Source: Vicinamibacterales bacterium (GTDB taxonomy: Bacteria > Acidobacteriota > Vicinamibacteria > Vicinamibacterales > UBA8438). Taken from it: a DNA stretch of 64,000 nucleotides. Below are positions 3,478-17,997 of the stretch, piece after piece (position 1 is the first letter of the stretch; the number at the start of each line of letters is the position of its first letter). The position numbers were made by a program, and so were the translations under genes. Below the pieces are notes generated by a model. The model was not told the DNA's origin, made no database searches, and worked only from the letters and a program-made list of their open reading frames with translations. The stretch lies in NCBI GenBank assembly GCA_965249175.1, contig OZ252227.1, positions 2,299,699-2,363,698 of the forward strand, read 5' to 3'.

Positions 3478-3693
3478 ATGGCGCTGACCGTCGGCTCCCG
3501 CCTCGGCCATTACGACGTGACCGACCTCATCGGCGAGGGGGGAATGGGGCAGGTCTATCGCGCCACCGACACCCAACTGGGCCGCGACGTCGCGCTGAAG
3601 ATTCTCCCCGACGCCTTCGCCGCTGACCCGGACCGGCTCGCCCGGTTCCAGCGGGAAGCGCAGGTGCTGGCCACATGCGCTGCTGAATCCTGA
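3478..3693 (+). pseudogene. Ser/Thr kinase N-lobe fragment K1
   Basis: [27 protein letters not shown], then unrelated sequence and stop. Confidence 0.9.
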
Positions 3694-3738: not shown

Positions 3739-5174
3739 GAGATATAACCAGAAGTTGTGGATCGGCAGTCTGAAGAAGGCGGCGTATCCTTTCGCGTGAG
3801 CAACGCGAAAACTCCGGCTGGCAGGCCGGTGAAAGGAGCCGCCACCCATGCTGAAGGTACTCGACAACGATGGAGCAGACAACGAAGTTCCGCCGGAAGA
3901 GCGCGGTGCGCAGACGGTGGACGAGCTGGCCCGGGAGGGAGCCCGGCGGATGTTGATGACGGCCCTGGCGGTGGAGGTCGGGCAGTACATCGAGGCCCAC
4001 GGCGAGGAGCGGGACGCGCGGGGACGCCGGCTGGTCGTTCGGAATGGTCGGGCCCAGGCGCGGAAGGTGACGTGCGGGGCAGGTACGCTCGAGGTGCATG
4101 CTCCTCGGGTGAACGACAAAAGGGTCAACGGCGCGGGCCAGCGGGAGCGGTTCACGAGTCGGATCTTGCCCCCCTACATGCGTCGCTCGCCCAAGGTGGC
4201 GGAGGTGCTGCCGATCCTCTATCTGCGCGGTCTGTCGACGGGCGATTTCCGCGAAGCGCTGCCGGTGCTATTGGGGGATGACGCGGCCGGCCTCAGCGCG
4301 ACCAACATCGCGCGCCTCACGGCGGTGTGGGAAGAGGACTACCGGCGGTTCCGCCAGCGGGACCTGGCCGATCGTGACTACGTGTACGTGTGGGTCGACG
4401 GCATCCATTTCAACATCCGGCTCGAGGACGATCGGCTCTGTACGCTGGTGATCCATCGGCGTACGGCCCGATGGGACCAAGAAGCTCGTGGCCCTGGAGG
4501 ACGGCTACCGCGAGAGCACCGACAGCTGGGCGACGGTGCTGCGGGACCTCCAGCGGCGCGGCATGCGGGCCCCGGTGGGGGCGGTCGGCGACGGCGCCCT
4601 GGGTTTCTGGGCGGCCGTGCGCGACGTGTGGCCGGACACGCGAGAGCTCCGCGACTGGTGTCACAAGATGGGCAACGTGCTCGACAAATTGCCAAAGCGA
4701 TTACAGCCGAAAGCGAAGCGCGCGCTCCGCGAGATCATGTACGCCGAGACGCGGGCACACGCCGAGGAGGCCATGGACGTCTTCATCGCCGAGTACGAGG
4801 CCAAGTACCCGAAGGCGGCGGCGTGCCTGGACGCAGACCGCGACCGCCTCCTCACGCACTTTGCCCTGCCAGCTGAGCATTGGCAGCACGTGCGCACGAG
4901 CAACGTCATCGAGTCGCCATTCGCCACGGTCCGACTCCGGCAGCGCGTGACCAAAGGCGCGGGCTCGCGCACCAAGGGCCTGTTGATGGCCTACAAGCTG
5001 CTCGAGATGGCACAGCAGCGCTGGCGTCGGCTCAATGGCGCGCATCTGCTGCCACTCGTCCGCGCCGGCGTGACGTTCATTGACGGGGTACAGCAGGAGC
5101 GAAACAACGAGGGAGATCGGAAGGTGGCCGCCTGATCACGCTGATGACCGATCCACAACATTTGACAATATCTC
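3739..5174 (+). mobile_element. IS256 type A copy 2 (frameshifted transposase)
   Basis: Ends GAGATATAACC../..GACAATATCTC; 9-bp TCCACCCGA duplication with extra GG on the left. Confidence 0.95.
3848..5135 (+). pseudogene. IS256 transposase with +1 C at about 4453
   Basis: GTGATCCATC versus GTGATCATC in intact copies. Confidence 0.9.
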
Positions 5175-5676: not shown

Positions 5677-7105
5677 GAGGGTGAGCTAATCTTAGTTGAA
5701 AATTGAAACGGCTCCAGACCCTGTGGTGTGATGACGTTGCAAAAGACGGACATCACCCCACGAGAGAGAGGAGCCACGATGAGTGTCCTACGTGCTGTCA
5801 GGAAGCGCAAGAAAGTTCGCAAGCTGGGCTCGGTCAACATCATTCACCGCGAGGCCTACGCGGATCTGGAGCTGGACGCGAAGGTGGAGCTGATCCGCTC
5901 GCTGGTGCCCCTGGGCCTGATGCATGTGCAGGAGTTGCTCGACCAGGAGGTGACGGCGCTGGCGAGCGAGCGCTACGTCCGGAAGGACGCGTCGGTCGGT
6001 GGACGCCGTCACGGCAGTAACCCTGGGACGGTGGGTCTCGCGGGGCAGCGCGTGCCGATTCGCGTGCCCCGGATTCGTCGCCTCGCAGGGAGCGAGATTC
6101 CGCTGCGGTCGTATGCGGCGTTGCATGACGACCGCGAGGTGGACGACGCGCTGCTGCGACGGGTGCTCTACGGGATCTCGTGCCGCAACTACGCGGCGGC
6201 CGCGGCGGCGATTCCCGGGGCGATCGGGCTGTCGAGTTCGACGGTGTCCCGGGGGTTCATCCAGGCCAGCGCGGCGCAGCTACGGGCGTTCCAGGAGCGG
6301 GACCTATCCGATGAGGACGTGGTGGCCGTGTTCCTGGACGGCAAGACGTTCGCTGACGCGACGATGGTCATCGCGCTAGGCATCACGCTGTCTGGGGAGA
6401 AACGCTTCCTGGGCTTCGTCGAAACGGACACGGAGAACGCGACGGTGCTCACACCGTTCCTGCGGTCGTTGGTCGAGCGGGGCCTCGACCTCTCCCAGGG
6501 TGTGCTGGTCATCCTCGATGGCGGCAAGGGGCTCCGCACGGCCGTCCGGAAGGCCTTCCGGGGCCGGGCCCTGGTCCAACGGTGCCAGTGGCACAAGCGC
6601 GAGAACGTGGTGAGCTACCTGGCCAAGCACGAGCAGGCGGTGTGGCGTCAGCGTCTCCAGCGAGCGTACAACCGGCCGGACTACGACGAGGCCCTCGGTG
6701 CGCTCGAGACGCTCCACGGCGAGTTGGACGAGCGGAACCAGTCGGCGGCTGACAGCTTGGCGGAAGGCCTGGACGAAACCCTGACGTGACATCGATTGGG
6801 CGTGTACGGAGTGCTGGGCCGGTCGCTGAAGACGACGAACTGTCTGGAGTCGGTCAATGCGCTGGTCGAGGAACGCTGCGCGAAGGTAGATCACTGGCAG
6901 AGCTCGAGCCAACGCCACCGCTGGCTGGCGACCGCCCTCCTGGACATCGAACCGCGCTTACGAAGGGTGAGGGGCTACCGCCACCTTCCCACGCTTCGGG
7001 CCGCATTGAAGCGAGAACTGAAGATCGACACGACGACGTCGAAGAAGCAGGCCGCGTAAGCCATCGGGAGCCGTGGAGAGTTTCAACTAAGAATGGGCTT
7101 GACTC
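5677..7105 (+). mobile_element. IS256-family element type B, copy 1
   Basis: IRs ..CTTAGTTGAAA/TTTCAACTAAG.., 8-bp duplication CGTGGTCG. Confidence 0.95.
5728..7059 (+). pseudogene. IS256 type B transposase with premature TGA at 6787-6789
   Basis: TTA (Leu) at the same position in the intact copy 47412-48743. Confidence 0.9.
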
Positions 7106-8051: not shown

Positions 8052-8435
8052 ATGTCATCGAAGAACACCCAGGCAGCGAGGGACGGCCGGGACCCGATTG
8101 TTGTCGAGGCACAGCGCTACCTCGATCAGCGGGACAAGACCTATCGGGAGCAAGCGCTCAAGATCTATCCCTGGATCTGTGCGAAGTGCGGTCGCGAATT
8201 CAGCGGCAAAAAGCTTCGCGAGCTTACCGTCCATCACAGGGACCACAACCACGACAACAATCCACCCGATGGGAGCAACTGGGAGTTGCTGTGTCTCTAC
8301 TGTCACGAAAACGAGCACGCGCGGAATCAGGTAGCTGACGCGTATGATGCGGCGACCTCGGGCGAGGAGCGAGAGCCCACGTCGACCTACAAGCCGTTCG
8401 CTGATCTTGCGGATGTGTTGAGGCGCAACGAATAG
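8052..8435 (+). CDS. yajD: YajD-family HNH nuclease
   Basis: [52 protein letters not shown]. Confidence 0.88.
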
Positions 8436-8599
8436 CTGCAGCTATGGCCCTGACCGTCGGCTCCCGCCTCGGCCATTACGACGTCACTGCCCTCATCGGC
8501 GAGGGCGGGATGGGCCAGGTCTATCGCGCCACCGACACGCAACTGGGCCGCGACGTCGCGCTGAAGATCCTTCTATGAAGCGGCTTGTCAAGTCACCTC

Positions 8600-8958
8600 G
8601 TTGTTCGTCGAAGCTCTCACGCTCTCCGATACACCCTCCAGTGAGCGCGCCGTCCCCGCACCCAGCTGGGGGGCGCGCGCGAACGGGTCGGCAGCTCGGT
8701 GTGCTGTCCACGGGCCCGGATTTCGGTCGCTAGGGTAACAACCTGCTTAGACGCGCCGGGCTGAAGCCGCGAGGTGCGTCATCCTTCTATTCGCGCTCGA
8801 CAAGGGCGATCTCTGATCGCCGGCGCAAGAGACGATCCGAATGGGGGGCGGCACCATCTCCCTGCCGGCCTCGCGTGCGACCAAGGATCTTCACGTGCTC
8901 ACCCACCAACCCTGCAACCCCGGACCTCACTCAGTGGCCCGACCGCACCACCAAGGAC
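8600..8958 (-). ncRNA. Predicted bridge/seek RNA of the IS1111 element (ends approximate)
   Basis: Guide-like matches to target (8884-8893, 8858-8866) and donor (8784-8790) inside stem-internal-loop structures. Confidence 0.75.
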
Positions 8959-9999
8959 TTACCCGCTCATCCCGTGCGGCACTGGGACCCCGACGCGGCG
9001 CCCGTCATAGACCGTCTGGTCCCGCCACATCGCAAACAGGATCCCCGCCAACCGGCGCGCGACGGCCACGGTGGCGATGCGCCGGCCGCGGCGCGTGGCC
9101 AGTTGCTCGGCCCAGGCGCGCAGGCCCGCGGCCTCCGCCCGGCGAGACCGGAGCGCGGCCCACGCGGCTTGCACCAGCAACCAGCGCATGCGCGGATTGC
9201 CCGCCTTCGTAATGTGGCCCCGACGGTGGCGGTCCGCAGAGCTGTCCTCGCTGGGCACCAAGCCGAGAAAGCTCTCGACCTGGTGGGCCCCGCCAAAGCG
9301 CCCCGCCTCATCCAGCGTCGCGACGAATGCCGTCGCGATGAGGGGGCCTACCCCGGGGGCGGTAGTCAACCGCTGTACCACCGGGTTGGCCGCCGCCGTC
9401 TCGATGACCTGGGCATCGGCCACGGCGAGCTGCGCGGTCAACTGTTCCCACAGGGCGAGCAGCGGCTGGAGCGCCGCCTGTAACTCGTCGGGGAGCTCCA
9501 GCTCCGTCACATACGTACCGAATCGGTCGGCATCCCCGGCCCGGACGCGCAGTCCCTCCCGCCGCACCAGCGCCCGCACCAAGGCGATGGTGCGCCCGCG
9601 GGTCCGCCCGAGCAGGTCGCGCACCCGGAGCTGGCGCCGCACCCGATGCTGGGCGGCCGACACGCGATGCGCCGGGCGATAGGAACCGAGTCGGGCCGCC
9701 TCGGCCAGCATCCGCGCATCGCGCCGATCCGTCTTCACACGCCGGCGCCGTTCGGGATACATCGGGGCGTAGTTCGGATCCGCCACGATGACCTCGTGGC
9801 CGCACTGCTCGATCGTCTGCGCCACCCATTCGCTTTCCGTCGTCGCCTCGAGGAGCACCCGGGCACACGGTCGGCTCCCGAACATCTTCGTGAACTGCTG
9901 CCGCGTACTCTGAATCCGTCGTTCGATGATCTCGCCCTCGGACGTGAGGATGCAGATTTGACTTTCTCTCTTATGGACGTCGATGCCAATATGCTCCAT
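8959..9999 (-). CDS. IS110 DEDD recombinase/transposase
   Basis: HIGIDVHK, VLLEA, KTDRRDA, PGVG, GLVPSEDSS, ITKAGN, VAVARRL. Confidence 0.95.
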   Translation of the reverse strand: MEHIGIDVHKRESQICILTSEGEIIERRIQSTRQQFTKMFGSRPCARVLLEATTESEWVAQTIEQCGHEVIVADPNYAPMYPERRRRVKTDRRDARMLAEAARLGSYRPAHRVSAAQHRVRRQLRVRDLLGRTRGRTIALVRALVRREGLRVRAGDADRFGTYVTELELPDELQAALQPLLALWEQLTAQLAVADAQVIETAAANPVVQRLTTAPGVGPLIATAFVATLDEAGRFGGAHQVESFLGLVPSEDSSADRHRRGHITKAGNPRMRWLLVQAAWAALRSRRAEAAGLRAWAEQLATRRGRRIATVAVARRLAGILFAMWRDQTVYDGRRVGVPVPHGMSG

Positions 10000-10197
10000 G
10001 GCTGGTCTCCCTCTGTGCGCCTTGAGCGCGTTTGAAAAATGTGGAGCGCAAGCTACCACGTGGGGACGACCAGCCGCTTCATCCTATCTCCCCGACGCCT
10101 TCGCGGCTGATCCGGGATCGGCTCGTCCGGTTCGGGCGGGAAGCGCAGGTTCGGGAGTCTGTGTCCTGACAAGAACCCGACCCGTCCCGAGTGCGAA

Positions 10198-10385
10198 ATG
10201 AACCTCGTCATCATCGCATTGGTGCTCGTCCAAGCGACATTGTCGCCTCGCGAGGCGTACGCGCCCTACAACCAGTTCACCGAGTTCGATCGTCATTTCT
10301 CGAAGTACAGCAAGCGGTACTTCGGTCCGGCATTCGACTGGCGCTACTTCAAGGCCCAAGCCATCGCCGAATCTCGGTTGCAGGT
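10198..10385 (+). pseudogene. Lytic transglycosylase (SLT/MltF-like) N-terminal fragment
   Basis: Signal peptide then FDRHFSKYSKRYFGPAFDWRYFKAQAIAESRL; reads on in frame into K4. Confidence 0.7.
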
Positions 10386-10491
10386 AGCACTAAGCGAAAC
10401 TGTTCACCCTAGCCCCAGCGACCCGGCAAGACGACGATCCCGCCCGCTGACGGACTACAATCCCCGTACTTCCCCAGAACCCAGGAGGATC

Positions 10492-10692
10492 GTGCCACTG
10501 ACGCCCGGCGTACGGCTCGGAGCGTACGAAGTCACCGCCAAAATCGGCAGCGGCGGGATGGGGGAGGTGTACCAGGCGCTGGACACCAACCTGGATCGGG
10601 ATGTCGCGCTGAAAGTCCTGCCTGATGCCTTCACGTCGGATCCCGATCGCCTAGCCCGTTTCGAGCGGGAAGCCAAGGTCCTCGCCCGCTGA
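10492..10692 (+). pseudogene. Ser/Thr kinase N-lobe fragment K4
   Basis: TACAAT -10 and AGGAGG RBS; IGSGGMGEVY..VALKVLPDAF..RFEREAKVLAR*. Confidence 0.9.
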
Positions 10693-11782: not shown

Positions 11783-13250
11783 CAGCCCGTGGTGAAAGTC
11801 CCTATTAGGGATCGACACGATCGATCCCGCGTACTACACTGTCGCGCATGGCGATGGGCAAACGACGACGCCGGGCGCGGCAAGCATCGATGTGGGTTCC
11901 CACCAGCGACCTGCCTCGCAGTGCGGCGCATCCGTTCTATCAGCGATTGAATCGGATCCTCGATGACACGGGCTTCGACGCGTTCGTCGAGGCGCAATGC
12001 GCGCCGTTCTACGCGGACGGCGTCGGTCGTCCGAGTCTGGCGCCGGGGCGGTACTTCCGGCTGCTGATGCTCGGCTACTTCGAAGGGCTGGACTCGGAGC
12101 GGGCGATCGCGTGGCGGGCGGCCGATTCGCTGAGCATCCGGCAGTTTCTGGACCTCGAGCTGCACGAGGCGCCGCCGGATCACTCGACGCTGTCGCGCAC
12201 CCGGCGCCTGATCGACGTCGAGACCCATCAAGCGGTGTTCACGTGGGTGCTGCAGCAACTGGCCGACGCCCAGCTCGTGACCGGGCGGACCCTCGGCATC
12301 GATGCCACGACGTTGGAAGCGAACGCCGCATTGCGGAGTATCGTGCGCCGGGACACGGGCGAAGGCTACGAGGCGTTTCTGACCGGGCTGGCCGAGGCGT
12401 CCGGCATCGTCACGCCGACCCGCGCTGAGCTGGCCCGGTTCGACCGGAAACGGAAGAAGAAAGGCTCCAACGACGACTGGACGCATCCGCAGGATCCGGA
12501 CGCGAAGATCACGAAGCTGAAGGACGGGCGCACGCACTTGGCGCACACCGCGGAGCATGCGGTGGACCTGGAGACGGGGGCCATCGTCGGCGTCACCGTG
12601 CAGGATGCCGACGACGGCGATACGACGACGATGGTCGAGACCCTGATCACGGCGGCCGACCACGTCGAAGCCGTCCTGCCGGCCGGCGCCGGTATCGCCG
12701 AGGTCGTCGGGGACAAGGGGTATCACAGTAACGAGACGATGGTGGCGTTCGCCGCGCTCGGCGTGCGCAGTTATGTTTCGGAGCCGGACCGCGGGCGACG
12801 CAACTGGACAGGCAAGGCGGCGGCGCGCGACGCCGTGTACGCGAACCGTCGGCGCATTCGGGGCACGCGTGGGCAACGGCTGCTGCGACGGCGGGGCGAG
12901 TTGCTCGAACGCCCCAACGCGCATCTCTACGAGACCGGGCGGCTGCGCCGGGTGCATCTGCGTGGGCATCCCAACATCCTCAAGCGCGTGCTTGTGCACG
13001 TCTGCGGGTTCAATCTTGGGCTCCTCATGCGGCAGCTGACGGGCGTCGGCACGCCGCGGAGCCTCCAAGGCCGCGCGGTCGCCGTCTTCGAGGCCTTGAT
13101 CGCTGATCTTGGCCGCCTCTGGACCCTCGTATCGCCCGCGTGGGCGCGAGATGCGCAAGATCTGCCGCACTCGTCGTTTCTCGACCTTATGACACGGTGT
13201 CACGAACACATGCCCCTCGACCTACGAAAGGGCGTTTTCACCACGGGCTG
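11783..13250 (+). mobile_element. IS1182/IS5-like element with CTAG target
   Basis: IR CAGCCCGTGGTGAAA/TTTCACCACGGGCTG, CTAG duplicated. Confidence 0.92.
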
Positions 13251-13254
13251 CTAG
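11848..13254 (+). CDS. DDE transposase (DUF772 N-terminus)
   Basis: GRPSLAP..SERAIAWRAADSLS..PDHSTLSRTR..IDATT..GDKGY. Confidence 0.92.
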   Translation: MAMGKRRRRARQASMWVPTSDLPRSAAHPFYQRLNRILDDTGFDAFVEAQCAPFYADGVGRPSLAPGRYFRLLMLGYFEGLDSERAIAWRAADSLSIRQFLDLELHEAPPDHSTLSRTRRLIDVETHQAVFTWVLQQLADAQLVTGRTLGIDATTLEANAALRSIVRRDTGEGYEAFLTGLAEASGIVTPTRAELARFDRKRKKKGSNDDWTHPQDPDAKITKLKDGRTHLAHTAEHAVDLETGAIVGVTVQDADDGDTTTMVETLITAADHVEAVLPAGAGIAEVVGDKGYHSNETMVAFAALGVRSYVSEPDRGRRNWTGKAAARDAVYANRRRIRGTRGQRLLRRRGELLERPNAHLYETGRLRRVHLRGHPNILKRVLVHVCGFNLGLLMRQLTGVGTPRSLQGRAVAVFEALIADLGRLWTLVSPAWARDAQDLPHSSFLDLMTRCHEHMPLDLRKGVFTTGC

Positions 13255-14329: not shown

Positions 14330-15764
14330 GAGATATAACCAGAAGTTGTGGATCGGCAGTCTGAAGAAGGCGGCGTATCCTTTCGCGTGAGCAACGCGAA
14401 AACTCCGGCTGGCAGGCCGGTGAAAGGAGCCGCCACCCATGCTGAAGGTACTCGACAACGATGGAGCAGACAACGAAGTTCCGCCGGAAGAGCGCGGTGC
14501 GCAGACGGTGGACGAGCTGGCCCGGGAGGGAGCCCGGCGGATGTTGATGACGGCCCTGGCGGTGGAGGTCGGGCAGTACATCGAGGCCCACGGCGAGGAG
14601 CGGGACGCGCGGGGACGCCGGCTGGTCGTTCGGAATGGTCGGGCCCAGGCGCGGAAGGTGACGTGCGGGGCAGGTACGCTCGAGGTGCATGCTCCTCGGG
14701 TGAACGACAAAAGGGTCAACGGCGCGGGCCAGCGGGAGCGGTTCACGAGTCGGATCTTGCCCCCCTACATGCGTCGCTCGCCCAAGGTGGCGGAGGTGCT
14801 GCCGATCCTCTATCTGCGCGGTCTGTCGACGGGCGATTTCCGCGAAGCGCTGCCGGTGCTATTGGGGGATGACGCGGCCGGCCTCAGCGCGACCAACATC
14901 GCGCGCCTCACGGCGGTGTGGGAAGAGGACTACCGGCGGTTCCGCCAGCGGGACCTGGCCGATCGTGACTACGTGTACGTGTGGGTCGACGGCATCCATT
15001 TCAACATCCGGCTCGAGGACGATCGGCTCTGTACGCTGGTGATCATCGGCGTACGGCCCGATGGGACCAAGAAGCTCGTGGCCCTGGAGGACGGCTACCG
15101 CGAGAGCACCGACAGCTGGGCGACGGTGCTGCGGGACCTCCAGCGGCGCGGCATGCGGGCCCCGGTGGGGGCGGTCGGCGACGGCGCCCTGGGTTTCTGG
15201 GCGGCCGTGCGCGACGTGTGGCCGGACACGCGAGAGCTCCGCGACTGGTGTCACAAGATGGGCAACGTGCTCGACAAATTGCCAAAGCGATTACAGCCGA
15301 AAGCGAAGCGCGCGCTCCGCGAGATCATGTACGCCGAGACGCGGGCACACGCCGAGGAGGCCATGGACGTCTTCATCGCCGAGTACGAGGCCAAGTACCC
15401 GAAGGCGGCGGCGTGCCTGGACGCAGACCGCGACCGCCTCCTCACGCACTTTGCCCTGCCAGCTGAGCATTGGCAGCACGTGCGCACGAGCAACGTCATC
15501 GAGTCGCCATTCGCCACGGTCCGACTCCGGCAGCGCGTGACCAAAGGCGCGGGCTCGCGCACCAAGGGCCTGTTGATGGCCTACAAGCTGCTCGAGATGG
15601 CACAGCAGCGCTGGCGTCGGCTCAATGGCGCGCATCTGCTGCCACTCGTCCGCGCCGGCGTGACGTTCATTGACGGGGTACAGCAGGAGCGAAACAACGA
15701 GGGAGATCGGAAGGTGGCCGCCTGATCACGCTGATGACCGATCCACAACATTTGACAATATCTC
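14330..15764 (+). mobile_element. IS256 type A copy 3 (no target duplication)
   Basis: Same ends; flanks CATCCACTC and TTGGCGACG do not match. Confidence 0.95.
14439..15725 (+). CDS. IS256 transposase, intact 428 aa
   Basis: YVWVDG, VGDGALGFW, DWCHK, RTSNVIESPF. Confidence 0.96.
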   Translation: MLKVLDNDGADNEVPPEERGAQTVDELAREGARRMLMTALAVEVGQYIEAHGEERDARGRRLVVRNGRAQARKVTCGAGTLEVHAPRVNDKRVNGAGQRERFTSRILPPYMRRSPKVAEVLPILYLRGLSTGDFREALPVLLGDDAAGLSATNIARLTAVWEEDYRRFRQRDLADRDYVYVWVDGIHFNIRLEDDRLCTLVIIGVRPDGTKKLVALEDGYRESTDSWATVLRDLQRRGMRAPVGAVGDGALGFWAAVRDVWPDTRELRDWCHKMGNVLDKLPKRLQPKAKRALREIMYAETRAHAEEAMDVFIAEYEAKYPKAAACLDADRDRLLTHFALPAEHWQHVRTSNVIESPFATVRLRQRVTKGAGSRTKGLLMAYKLLEMAQQRWRRLNGAHLLPLVRAGVTFIDGVQQERNNEGDRKVAA

Positions 15765-16562: not shown

Positions 16563-17997
16563 GAGATATAACCAGAAGTTGTGGATCGGCAGTCTGAAGA
16601 AGGCGGCGTATCCTTTCGCGTGAGCAACGCGAAAACTCCGGCTGGCAGGCCGGTGAAAGGAGCCGCCACCCATGCTGAAGGTACTCGACAACGATGGAGC
16701 AGACAACGAAGTTCCGCCGGAAGAGCGCGGTGCGCAGACGGTGGACGAGCTGGCCCGGGAGGGAGCCCGGCGGATGTTGATGACGGCCCTGGCGGTGGAG
16801 GTCGGGCAGTACATCGAGGCCCACGGCGAGGAGCGGGACGCGCGGGGACGCCGGCTGGTCGTTCGGAATGGTCGGGCCCAGGCGCGGAAGGTGACGTGCG
16901 GGGCAGGTACGCTCGAGGTGCATGCTCCTCGGGTGAACGACAAAAGGGTCAACGGCGCGGGCCAGCGGGAGCGGTTCACGAGTCGGATCTTGCCCCCCTA
17001 CATGCGTCGCTCGCCCAAGGTGGCGGAGGTGCTGCCGATCCTCTATCTGCGCGGTCTGTCGACGGGCGATTTCCGCGAAGCGCTGCCGGTGCTATTGGGG
17101 GATGACGCGGCCGGCCTCAGCGCGACCAACATCGCGCGCCTCACGGCGGTGTGGGAAGAGGACTACCGGCGGTTCCGCCAGCGGGACCTGGCCGATCGTG
17201 ACTACGTGTACGTGTGGGTCGACGGCATCCATTTCAACATCCGGCTCGAGGACGATCGGCTCTGTACGCTGGTGATCATCGGCGTACGGCCCGATGGGAC
17301 CAAGAAGCTCGTGGCCCTGGAGGACGGCTACCGCGAGAGCACCGACAGCTGGGCGACGGTGCTGCGGGACCTCCAGCGGCGCGGCATGCGGGCCCCGGTG
17401 GGGGCGGTCGGCGACGGCGCCCTGGGTTTCTGGGCGGCCGTGCGCGACGTGTGGCCGGACACGCGAGAGCTCCGCGACTGGTGTCACAAGATGGGCAACG
17501 TGCTCGACAAATTGCCAAAGCGATTACAGCCGAAAGCGAAGCGCGCGCTCCGCGAGATCATGTACGCCGAGACGCGGGCACACGCCGAGGAGGCCATGGA
17601 CGTCTTCATCGCCGAGTACGAGGCCAAGTACCCGAAGGCGGCGGCGTGCCTGGACGCAGACCGCGACCGCCTCCTCACGCACTTTGCCCTGCCAGCTGAG
17701 CATTGGCAGCACGTGCGCACGAGCAACGTCATCGAGTCGCCATTCGCCACGGTCCGACTCCGGCAGCGCGTGACCAAAGGCGCGGGCTCGCGCACCAAGG
17801 GCCTGTTGATGGCCTACAAGCTGCTCGAGATGGCACAGCAGCGCTGGCGTCGGCTCAATGGCGCGCATCTGCTGCCACTCGTCCGCGCCGGCGTGACGTT
17901 CATTGACGGGGTACAGCAGGAGCGAAACAACGAGGGAGATCGGAAGGTGGCCGCCTGATCACGCTGATGACCGATCCACAACATTTGACAATATCTC
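16563..17997 (+). mobile_element. IS256 type A copy 4
   Basis: 9-bp duplication GAGCGCCCA. Confidence 0.96.
16672..17958 (+). CDS. IS256 transposase, intact
   Basis: Same protein as 14439-15725. Confidence 0.96.
   Translation: MLKVLDNDGADNEVPPEERGAQTVDELAREGARRMLMTALAVEVGQYIEAHGEERDARGRRLVVRNGRAQARKVTCGAGTLEVHAPRVNDKRVNGAGQRERFTSRILPPYMRRSPKVAEVLPILYLRGLSTGDFREALPVLLGDDAAGLSATNIARLTAVWEEDYRRFRQRDLADRDYVYVWVDGIHFNIRLEDDRLCTLVIIGVRPDGTKKLVALEDGYRESTDSWATVLRDLQRRGMRAPVGAVGDGALGFWAAVRDVWPDTRELRDWCHKMGNVLDKLPKRLQPKAKRALREIMYAETRAHAEEAMDVFIAEYEAKYPKAAACLDADRDRLLTHFALPAEHWQHVRTSNVIESPFATVRLRQRVTKGAGSRTKGLLMAYKLLEMAQQRWRRLNGAHLLPLVRAGVTFIDGVQQERNNEGDRKVAA

Follow-up and report, generated by a model that had tools for sequence, protein, structure and literature searches.

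Guidance of the recombinase by RNA has been demonstrated experimentally in the IS110 family of insertion sequences (PMC11187229, PMC11208160). In the seekRNAs of IS1111-type elements, the segment that matches the top strand of the target lies 5' of the segment that matches the bottom strand, a rule given in the text of PMC11187229, and in wild-type IS621 pairing with the right target extends over only 4 bp, according to the text of PMC11208160. Most of the natural targets reported for the family are either repeats outside coding sequence or the termini of other mobile elements; attC sites, inverted repeats of the Tn21 family and REP elements appear in the titles of the references of Durrant et al. 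2024 (PMC11208160). In a literature search that took in main-text passages of PMC11208160 and PMC11187229, we found no report of a member of this family whose natural target is a coding motif conserved across an expanded family of genes. Here we describe, in a 64-kb window (the whole stretch of DNA that was analysed, 64,000 nucleotides), an IS1111-type element that is very probably guided by its RNA to the catalytic-lysine codons of a family of Ser/Thr kinases.

The insertion sequence (IS) occupies positions 8572-10087 of the window on the minus strand and is 1516 bp long when one copy of the CT core is assigned to each flank. We set its ends from the flanks of all copies and from contigs joining 8569 to 10088; CT is found at both junctions, with no target duplication beyond the core. 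The transposase gene (8959-9999, minus strand; 346 aa, starting MEHIGIDVHK) matches two domains in Pfam, DEDD_Tnp_IS110 (PF01548) as well as Transposase_20 (PF02371) with E values of 4.3e-18 and 2.7e-22, and it scores 256.6 bits against the NCBIfam model NF033542, 'IS110 family RNA-guided transposase', for which the cutoff is 140. Among proteins of solved structure, the best relative by sequence is the transposase of ISCro4 (PDB 9t56; E 1.2e-12), a distant one with which both the N-terminal and the C-terminal domains align, the region of the conserved serine included; IS621 is also matched (E 2.1e-11). The conserved serine of the G-x-x-P-x-x-x-x-S motif in the C-terminal domain is present, GLVPSEDSS aligning with GLTPRRYESG of ISCro4, and the residue after it is Ala or Ser, not Gly.

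Subterminal inverted repeats of 11 bp lie at 8575-8585 (ATGAAGCGGCT on the plus strand; the right end in transposase sense) and at 10072-10082 (AGCCGCTTCAT on the plus strand; the left end). The first is preceded by a 3-nt terminal extension (8572-8574) and the second is followed by one of 5 nt (10083-10087), and the repeat length falls within the 7-17 bp range of the IS1111 group. The motif TGAAGCGGC/GCCGCTTCA is kept in related loci. Non-coding sequence amounts to 387 nt downstream of the transposase gene (8572-8958) and 88 nt upstream of it (10000-10087). The stretch 8572-10087 is best classed as an autonomous IS110-family element of the IS1111 type, as the original prediction had it, because the subterminal repeats, the downstream non-coding region, the order of the guide strands and the size of the transposase all fit that label.

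The element interrupts a Ser/Thr kinase gene, the 5' part of which (8446-8571, plus strand) consists of 42 codons beginning MALTVG and terminates in the left target plus the CT core. The rest of the gene (10088-10201, plus strand) has 37 codons, some 20 of them kinase-like before a frameshift in a run of G, and the kinase at this locus is a fragment. The left target TGAAGATC with the core CT (8562-8571, plus strand) reads TGAAGATCCT, and the core CT with the right target CCCCGAC (10088-10096, plus strand) reads CTCCCCGAC. The predicted empty site, CTGAAGATCCTCCCCGAC, is present uninterrupted in three kinase genes of the sister genome G001, where a fourth kinase site differs from it solely at a flanking Pro codon (CCG); the uninterrupted sites read ...GATC CT CCCC.... 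The contigs that join 8569 to 10088, which come from three public runs, agree with these genes, their two ambiguous letters being the CT core. An empty LKILPD site with a CT core had been proposed from the occupied locus alone, and it is found as proposed.

The host is a soil bacterium, and its Ser/Thr kinase family comprises about 100 gene copies. The genome holds 16 near-identical copies (~100%) of the IS. When the flanks of all 16 were collected, 15 were found inside the ALKILPD codons of different kinase paralogues, in one orientation throughout, and the sixteenth at a non-kinase site with a partial guide match (7/10 on the left and 7/7 contiguous on the right), which supports the predicted targeting of the kinase motif. 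One further kinase site holds a remnant of the IS, bringing the occupied kinase sites to 16. All 16 carry the exact sequence AAGATCCT/CCC, compared with 0 of the 92 unoccupied kinase sites; the 8 bases AAGATCCT are invariant at the occupied kinase sites, and CTCCC is invariant at all 16 full copies. Seven of the unoccupied sites are a single base off (ATT in two, AAA in three, CTG in one and GTC in one). Every exactly matching kinase site in the genome is filled, and the sole free 11-mer lies within a lactate/malate dehydrogenase gene. Saturation of this kind is not general, because four free kinase sites in G001 carry the exact 11-mer.

Nine of the 15 kinase targets are short 5' fragments of kinase genes, and several keep 11-26 codons to the right of the IS. 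A reading of the truncated kinases as frameshift errors was rejected; tblastn finds only one locus to be full-length across frames. Where full-length pairs could be compared, the kinase remainders are 31-55% identical. One paralogue (L143:200-1870) matches Pkinase with an E value of 1.5e-48 and, weakly, PD40. Six ALKILPDAF sites are intact, four of them themselves fragments by a 230-aa cut-off, and these differ from the guide only at synonymous positions. The flanks of the 15 kinase-site copies are mutually distinct, diverging from 9 nt to the left and 6 nt to the right of the junction. Flank bins of 250 nt are mostly single-copy, the exceptions being the kinase-similar bins that adjoin the IS and three other high-copy repeats.

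The putative bridge/seek RNA core (8757-8914, minus strand), delimited by an alignment of 22 homologues (A1), their consensus fold and pair counts, would consist of a target-binding module followed by a donor-binding module. Its first part reads GCAC-GUGAAGAUCCUU-GGUC GCACGCGA GGCC-GGCAGGGAGAUG-GUGC, letter for letter as the original prediction gave it. The 5' strand of the target loop (8883-8894, minus strand; GUGAAGAUCCUU) has the sense of the kinase coding strand and agrees with its own junction at 11 of 12 positions; its final U corresponds to the base with which the IS begins. Its pairing partner at the left target and core would be the opposite strand. Within it, 8884-8893 is identical to 8562-8571 at 10/10 positions, as claimed. 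In the 64-kb window the exact 10-mer occurs in two places only, at 8562-8571 and as the reverse complement of 8884-8893, and tolerating one mismatch gives 8 matches, where shuffles lead one to expect 2.1. A hairpin (8867-8882, minus strand; GGUC-GCACGCGA-GGCC) closes the loop. The 3' strand (8855-8866, minus strand; GGCAGGGAGAUG) agrees with its own junction at 10 of 13 positions. It complements the coding strand of the kinase across the core and right target (CTCCCCGAC), with a single A.C mismatch, and its final bases match those with which the left IS end starts. The segment 8858-8866 reads CTCCCTGCC, and its claimed 7/9 match to 10088-10096 was likewise reproduced. The A.C mismatch is present at every kinase site, and the contiguous matches of this 3' guide, core included, number only five.

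A consensus fold of the 22 homologous RNAs supports a two-loop bridge/seek RNA as the structure of the non-coding region. In this fold 93.7% of cells are paired and 12 of 26 pairs are compensatory; its covariation score was reached by 0 of 500 shuffles, and slid controls pair at no more than 55%. The hairpin at 8867-8882 (helix 2) is paired in 93.6% of cells, with 3 of its 5 pairs changing on both sides, and the stem, internal loop and hairpin that had been predicted are all recovered, with covariation. For the alignment we anchored element ends on the conserved end motif, which defined them in 55 of 82 sequences (79 loci and three from the element's own genome), the other 27 being left out; after removal of duplicates, those with a donor motif and a 5' stem motif numbered 22. 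Minimum-free-energy folds of single sequences (8740-8925 and 8572-8960) miss the target loop and do not rise above shuffles (z 0.81 and -0.17). An Rfam scan of 8300-10400 matched no family to the RNA region, a sub-threshold match to whalefall-1 lying outside it.

The donor-binding module would supply two more guides. The proposed 3' donor guide (8783-8791, minus strand; AAUAGAAGG) contains AUAGAAG, which equals the right-end extension plus core, and in 21 of the 22 elements the U/C in GAA[U/C]AGAAG tracks the T/C in that extension ([T/C]AGA). The proposed 5' donor guide (8827-8838, minus strand; GGAUCGUCUCUU) appears to be the weakest of the four, agreeing with the reverse complement of the core plus left end at 7/10 positions, and its position matches the left-end extension also in relatives with different extensions. 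Contigs from RNA libraries that cover 8771-8920 were rejected as transcripts of this copy: they are short, their 6-8 differences assign them to related copies, and DNA carry-over is possible.

In the computed circle junction, TTGACA is followed by a 17-nt spacer and TAGGAT. The proposed -35 hexamer TTGACA lies at 8586-8591 (minus strand), 14 nt from the right end, and the proposed -10 hexamer, TAGGAT, corresponds to its reverse complement ATCCTA at 10081-10086 in the left end. Joined, the two may form a promoter that exists solely in the circular form; in the integrated copy, scans for promoters and terminators detected no promoter-like or terminator site.

Guides and targets change together among the relatives of this element, as the original prediction of a link between them implies. 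In the genomes G000, G001 and G004 and in that of L074, GAUC guides occur at AAGATCCT sites, and sister elements with a GGUG or GGUC guide (not GAUC) occur at AAGGTGCT (Val-codon) sites, mostly in kinases. On a quick transposase tree, whose taxa are limited to relatives found with this protein, the two guide variants go with the two target variants within a single clade (SH-aLRT 100); the branches of two of its rows (L087 and L099) are artefactually long, probably because the ORFs were taken in the wrong frame. The guide of the sister lineage appears to be retuned to the Val-codon version of the motif. In this GTG lineage some copies lie at poorly matched non-kinase sites (L067, 7/11), and nine exact AAGGTGCTCCC sites remain free. 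Across the 22 relatives, compared in free register, cognate matches average 9.0/12 for the 5' guide and 9.7/13 for the 3' guide, against 5.9 and 7.1 for non-cognate ones. In more distant relatives the scaffold is kept and the guides and targets are different.

The mechanism is one already known. From the anatomy and the published model we infer that the 3' non-coding region is transcribed, most likely from the circle-only promoter, into a two-module bridge/seek RNA that binds the transposase. Its target module would use the 5' loop strand UGAAGAUCCU to pair with the left target and core on one DNA strand, and the 3' loop strand GGCAGGGAG to pair with the core and right target on the other. The joined ends of the IS, in a circular intermediate, would be recognised by the second module. 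The DEDD/serine transposase would then recombine the circle with the target at the CT core. The sequence recognised would span about 11 bp, AAGATC-CT-CCC, the Lys-Ile-Leu-Pro codons of the kinase catalytic-lysine motif, and recognition of these codons would account for insertion into the paralogues in one orientation and for the splitting of each at its catalytic lysine.

Other routes to the same distribution can be weighed against these observations. Homologous recombination or gene conversion through conserved kinase flanks would spread the IS in a homing-like manner without RNA guidance, and paralogous flanks are indeed similar over roughly 100-130 bp on the left, while on the right the 250 nt next to the junction have, at several loci, 2-7 similar copies in the genome. 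However, differences between paralogues start 9-12 nt to the left and 6-11 nt to the right of the junction, and any conversion tract would therefore have to stop within ~10 nt to either side at each locus. A single synonymous mismatch in the 11-mer goes with an empty site in every case, despite flanks as similar as those of occupied sites, and one copy stands at a site that has no kinase likeness but does have a partial guide match. Given also the targets that retain 11-26 codons on the right, and the relatives with other guides at other, unrelated targets, we regard conversion as very unlikely.

It is extremely unlikely that the transposase protein alone recognises the site and that the match of the non-coding region is incidental. 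Such an account could draw on the imperfect match of the 3' guide and on the fact that the link between RNA and targeting is made here from sequence, but it leaves aside the covariation of guides and flanks over 22 elements whose scaffold stems are constant or compensatory, the pairing of two guide variants with two target variants in one transposase clade, and the RNA guidance demonstrated for the family. Segmental duplication of a single kinase-plus-IS unit, finally, would fit copies that are ~100% identical, but scarcely any credence can be given to it when the flanks of the 15 kinase-site copies all differ, most loci have single-copy sequence in one 250-nt flank bin after another and the kinase remainders are as divergent as reported above.

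Beyond RNA guidance to the catalytic-lysine codons, which we prefer, a wider reading is conceivable though rather doubtful. The element and the kinase family may be engaged in an ongoing contest at synonymous sites, in which insertion acts as a reversible, RNA-addressed switch on single paralogues. Because excision in the IS110 family is scarless, an interrupted full-length kinase could be restored. The synonymous differences at the six intact ALKILPDAF sites could be escape variants, and the many short 5' kinase fragments could be harmless landing pads that sustain the element. The same reading draws on the guide, which has switched at least once between the forms of the motif with an Ile codon and with a Val codon.

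This element offers a clean natural case of a bridge/seek RNA aimed at active-site codons that are held by selection and multiplied by the expansion of a gene family. Its genome amounts to a natural specificity experiment, in which the exact kinase sites are all filled and those with one mismatch are all empty. The GAUC and GGUG guides form a natural retargeting pair within one transposase clade, and the related scaffolds with differing guides are candidates for comparison or for testing as recombinase tools. With at least 16 kinase loci interrupted in the genome, the element also illustrates a route by which mobile DNA can thin out a family of signalling genes. Homing endonuclease genes, inteins and group II introns likewise settle in conserved coding motifs, but they splice out and keep the host gene working. 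The present element resembles them as a selfish element that exploits sequence fixed by selection on a protein; unlike them, it breaks the gene, and what it depends on is a large set of redundant paralogues rather than one essential gene.

A close likeness is to the seekRNA-guided IS1111 elements ISEc11, ISKpn4, ISPst6 and ISPa11 as they are presented in the text of Siddiquee et al. 2024 (PMC11187229). The element described here shares their subterminal repeats and downstream non-coding region, its transposase of 346 aa lies within the stated range of 330-350 aa, and each target strand is matched by a short RNA segment of its own, in the same order. Natural retargeting of the guide among close relatives is seen there between ISEc11 and ISXne4 and here between GAUC and GGUG. 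The parallel that the original prediction drew with IS1111 elements at attC sites is one of analogy. Unlike those elements, it targets a coding motif of a paralogous kinase family and is known from sequence alone, and its serine motif is GLVPSEDSSA (S-A), where S/T-G is usual. With IS621 and the bridge recombinases of the IS110 group, as described in the text of PMC11208160 and by 8wt6 and related structures, it has in common a CT core dinucleotide, a right-hand guide that is short, and low mismatch tolerance. Its RNA is predicted to resemble theirs in having two modules, one with an internal loop for the target and one with an internal loop for the donor, and there is a -35 box in the right end-left end junction, which is natural in IS621 and predicted here. 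It differs from IS621 in that its RNA lies in the right end, not the left, with the order of strand matches reversed, and in having inverted repeats of 11 bp rather than 2-3 bp and a transposase that is only distantly similar.

We searched the genome carrying the element (6.64 Mb, in one contig) for copies of the insertion sequence, which spans 1516 bp (8572-10087) between two target halves. The search returned 16 copies at approximately 100% identity, together with two full-length relatives at approximately 80% identity and several fragments. All but one of the 16 sit in the context ...GC[N]CTGAAGATCCT / IS / CTCCCCGA..., that is, in the ALKILPD codons of Ser/Thr kinases. Their orientation is uniform: at all 15 sites the transposase gene runs antisense to the kinase. 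A truncated remnant (L020) shares their left junction. The flank pairs of the 15 copies all differ from one another, with divergence between copies beginning 9-12 nt to the left and 6-11 nt to the right of the junction, and the flanking DNA, taken in 250-nt bins, is single-copy at most loci; the copies therefore represent separate insertions into paralogues rather than one duplicated locus. The original prediction held that the element targets the conserved catalytic-lysine motif of these kinases, and the collected flanks bear this out. An intact kinase paralogue matches Pkinase with an E-value of 1.5e-48 and PD40 weakly. The 16th copy is flanked by TCTAGACCCT and CTCCCTGTA; a search of its flanking ORFs for protein families detected none.

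In the same genome, 92 uninterrupted kinase sites fit a search pattern made up of the kinase glycine loop and, after it, a VA[ILV]K motif. None of the 92 contains AAGATCCTCCC, and seven differ by one base (ATT in two, AAA in three, CTG and GTC in one each) from this 11-mer, which comprises AAGATC of the left target, the CT core and CCC. All 16 occupied kinase sites read AAGATCCT/CCC exactly. The sole free copy of the 11-mer lies within a lactate/malate dehydrogenase gene, where insertion would presumably be costly. From base composition, approximately 2.4 copies of the 11-mer are expected genome-wide. The sister genome (G001) is unsaturated: four of its five occupied junctions are in kinases and one is elsewhere, and the 11-mer also stands free at seven places. 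Intact kinase sites account for four of the seven and represent natural empty sites; the sequence is CTGAAGATCCTCCCCGAC at three of them, and at the fourth the following Pro codon is CCG.

Within the window, positions 8562-8571 read TGAAGATCCT, and the reverse complement of 8884-8893 is identical to this 10-mer, which occurs at these two places only in the 64 kb. Positions 8858-8866 (CTCCCTGCC) match 10088-10096 (CTCCCCGAC) at 7 of 9 positions; an A.C mismatch is constant in the 3' guide, at a position mismatched at every kinase site. When the window sequence was re-read, the guide and target coordinates and match counts first proposed proved correct. The site of the 16th copy matches the left guide at 7/10 positions and the right guide at 7/7 contiguous positions, including the one mismatched at all kinase sites.

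Single-sequence folds of the non-coding region were uninformative. A consensus fold built from 22 homologous RNAs (alignment A1) consists, in order, of an outer stem, a 4-bp stem, an internal loop that holds both guide strands, a closing hairpin and a second module, recovering the predicted stem, internal loop and hairpin. The 4-bp stem is GCGC/GCGC, or GCAC/GUGC in the four kinase-targeting rows, and the second module combines a GCGCC/GAGCGC stem that does not vary with a hairpin that covaries. Paired cells account for 93.7% on the consensus structure compared with 84.8% in shuffles, both partners change in 12 of the 26 pairs, and the covariation score is 0.297, falling to at most 0.145 in controls that slide the partners by 1-3 columns. 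The observed score was not reached in any of the 500 shuffles, but sequences related to one another can outscore shuffles even if they form no structure, and the slid controls are the stronger. In 21 of 22 elements, the sequence GAA[U/C]AGAAG beside the second module tracks the extension at the right end ([T/C]AGA plus core); the strand 5' of the module's stem approximates the reverse complement of the core plus left end (7/10 in this element). The second module may be the donor-binding part, a reading in which we have less confidence than in the target loop.

A scan of one genome per species identified 79 related loci with protein identities of 47-95%, mainly in Vicinamibacterales and Gemmatimonadota. 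Both ends could be defined through a conserved motif in 55 of the 82 sequences examined (the 79 loci and three from the element's own genome); nearly all 55 share one end structure together with an AG core (transposase sense), and their flanks vary between lineages. For the 22 non-redundant elements among them that also share the RNA scaffold, the guides match their own junctions at a mean of 9.0/12 positions (5' strand) and 9.7/13 (3' strand), but the junctions of different-target elements at 5.9 and 7.1, respectively, with a nearly constant register. The 5' strand GUGAAGAUCCUU goes with the target AAGATCCT in the genome under study (G000), at three kinase sites of G001, in G004 and in the genome of locus L074. 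The 5' strand GUGAAGGUGCUU or GUGAAGGUCCUU goes with AAGGTGCT, the AIKVL/ALKVL version of the kinase motif, at L017, L018 and L021 in G000 and at L071 in G001. Kinase sites reading AAGGTGCT are likewise occupied by L062 (G001) and by an end fragment, L054 (G016), with guide strands lost or unread, and some GTG-lineage copies lie at non-kinase sites that match poorly (L067, 7/11; L069, 8/11). A quick maximum-likelihood tree groups the kinase-targeting elements in a single clade (SH-aLRT 100), whose sister element has a different target.

The spread of copies cannot be attributed to segmental duplication of the DNA around one insertion, which is excluded by the unique flanks. Spread by gene conversion between paralogues is unlikely: identity around the junction extends over only approximately 13 bp, sites with one mismatch are empty despite equally similar flanks, and one copy lies outside any kinase. 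If the site were instead recognised by the protein alone, the covariation of guide and target would be left unaccounted for.

Several relatives have features of their own. L017, L018 and L021, which carry the GTG guide, are approximately 80% identical to the main element, and the longest transposase ORF of L018 is 250 aa. This Val-codon lineage has three occupied junctions in G000 against 9 free AAGGTGCTCCC sites, and looks old and inactive. At L072 and L058 in G001, one copy's right end is doubled, approximately 64 nt apart, with IS-internal sequence after the inner end and kinase flank after the outer; at L064 and L057, likewise in G001, a copy carrying a 6-nt insertion beside the proposed 3' donor guide lies at the non-kinase site AAGAAGATCCT/CTCCTCGGGACC. 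Among L108, L128, L140 and L123, distant relatives lie in short tandem-like repeats with CACGAAG... on both flanks and others in palindromes such as GCGCAG/GCCTTCAGGCC, which suggests that the wider clade usually targets multicopy non-coding repeats.

What remains of the kinase past the insertion is full-length (709-877 aa) at only 4 of the 15 targets. A fifth is full-length with a frameshift, a sixth has a further interruption, by a 67-copy repeat, and nine retain only approximately 11-80 codons past the site. Fragments (under 230 residues beyond the catalytic Lys) also make up 44 of the 92 uninterrupted sites; in other words, the genome is rich in kinase 5' pieces whether or not the element is present. 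Only three truncations adjoin other high-copy repeats. Insertions in dead fragments would tend to be retained by selection. Near 758448, 2140733 and 3079334 of G000, other repeat families, of approximately 41 and 67 copies, occur within 250-750 nt of some element copies.

In the window, a second kinase 5' fragment (3585-3617, ALKILPDAF) is unoccupied and one synonymous base off the guide (ATT for ATC); a Mutator/IS256-type transposase gene begins approximately 250 nt downstream, at 3848. A chimeric ORF (10198-10692) has an N-terminal part without kinase likeness and, as its last third, a further kinase N-terminal fragment ending 26 residues past the Lys. Mobile elements crowd the neighbourhood (3848-4876, 5728-6789, 14439-15725, 16672-17958 and 11848-13254), with four Mutator/IS256-type transposase ORFs, of which two score identically, and one transposase that combines DUF772 with DDE_Tnp_1. 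The interrupted kinase fragment has its start codon 10 nt after the end of an HNH endonuclease gene (8052-8435; Pfam HNH, E-value 9e-12).

We found no sigma-70-like promoter in a scan of the integrated copy. With the ends joined in silico, the junction reads TTGACA, a 17-nt spacer and TAGGAT, which fits the published idea that a promoter arises in the circular form (PMC11187229; PMC11208160); end joining would create a putative promoter in the circle. Public runs were examined as contigs. In three of them, uninterrupted paralogues or relatives are represented by contigs that join 8569 to 10088 with two ambiguous letters, which confirms the junction. A run from another study contains a contig of the element, 1549 nt long, that differs from it once. 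Two metatranscriptome libraries contain short contigs over 8771-8920, whose 6-8 differences rule them out as a sign of this copy's transcription.

The element lineage is narrow. Among 401 genomes sampled from the order, two have its guide pattern with at most one mismatch (19 hits in G000 and one in G004); G001, which also has the pattern, lay outside that sample. The L074 genome, a fourth, has a decayed copy adjoining a kinase pseudogene, and G016 has an end fragment beside a kinase site. A full-text literature search found no IS110/IS1111 element targeting kinase genes or another conserved coding motif, although the supplementary target tables of PMC11187229 and PMC11208160, outside that search, may hold cases; the word 'kinase' is absent from the accessible text of 10.64898/2026.08.14.744561.

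The transposase gene (8959-9999, minus strand, 346 aa) matches Pfam DEDD_Tnp_IS110 and Transposase_20 and scores 256.6 bits (cutoff 140) against the NCBIfam model 'IS110 family RNA-guided transposase'. The solved transposases of ISCro4 and IS621 are distantly similar to it, with the conserved serine region aligned. IS621 is reported to show copy-and-paste behaviour (10.64898/2026.08.31.748434), and such behaviour would fit the 16 identical copies. The element has subterminal inverted repeats of 11 bp each (8575-8585 and 10072-10082), terminal extensions of 3 and 5 nt, CT at both junctions, and 387 nt of non-coding DNA downstream of the transposase gene compared with 88 nt upstream. These repeats, extensions, core and non-coding layout are the features given for the IS1111 type by Siddiquee et al. 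(PMC11187229). Read in transposase orientation, IS1111-type seekRNAs are reported to carry the top-strand target match first (5') and the bottom-strand match after it (PMC11187229), and the order is the same here.
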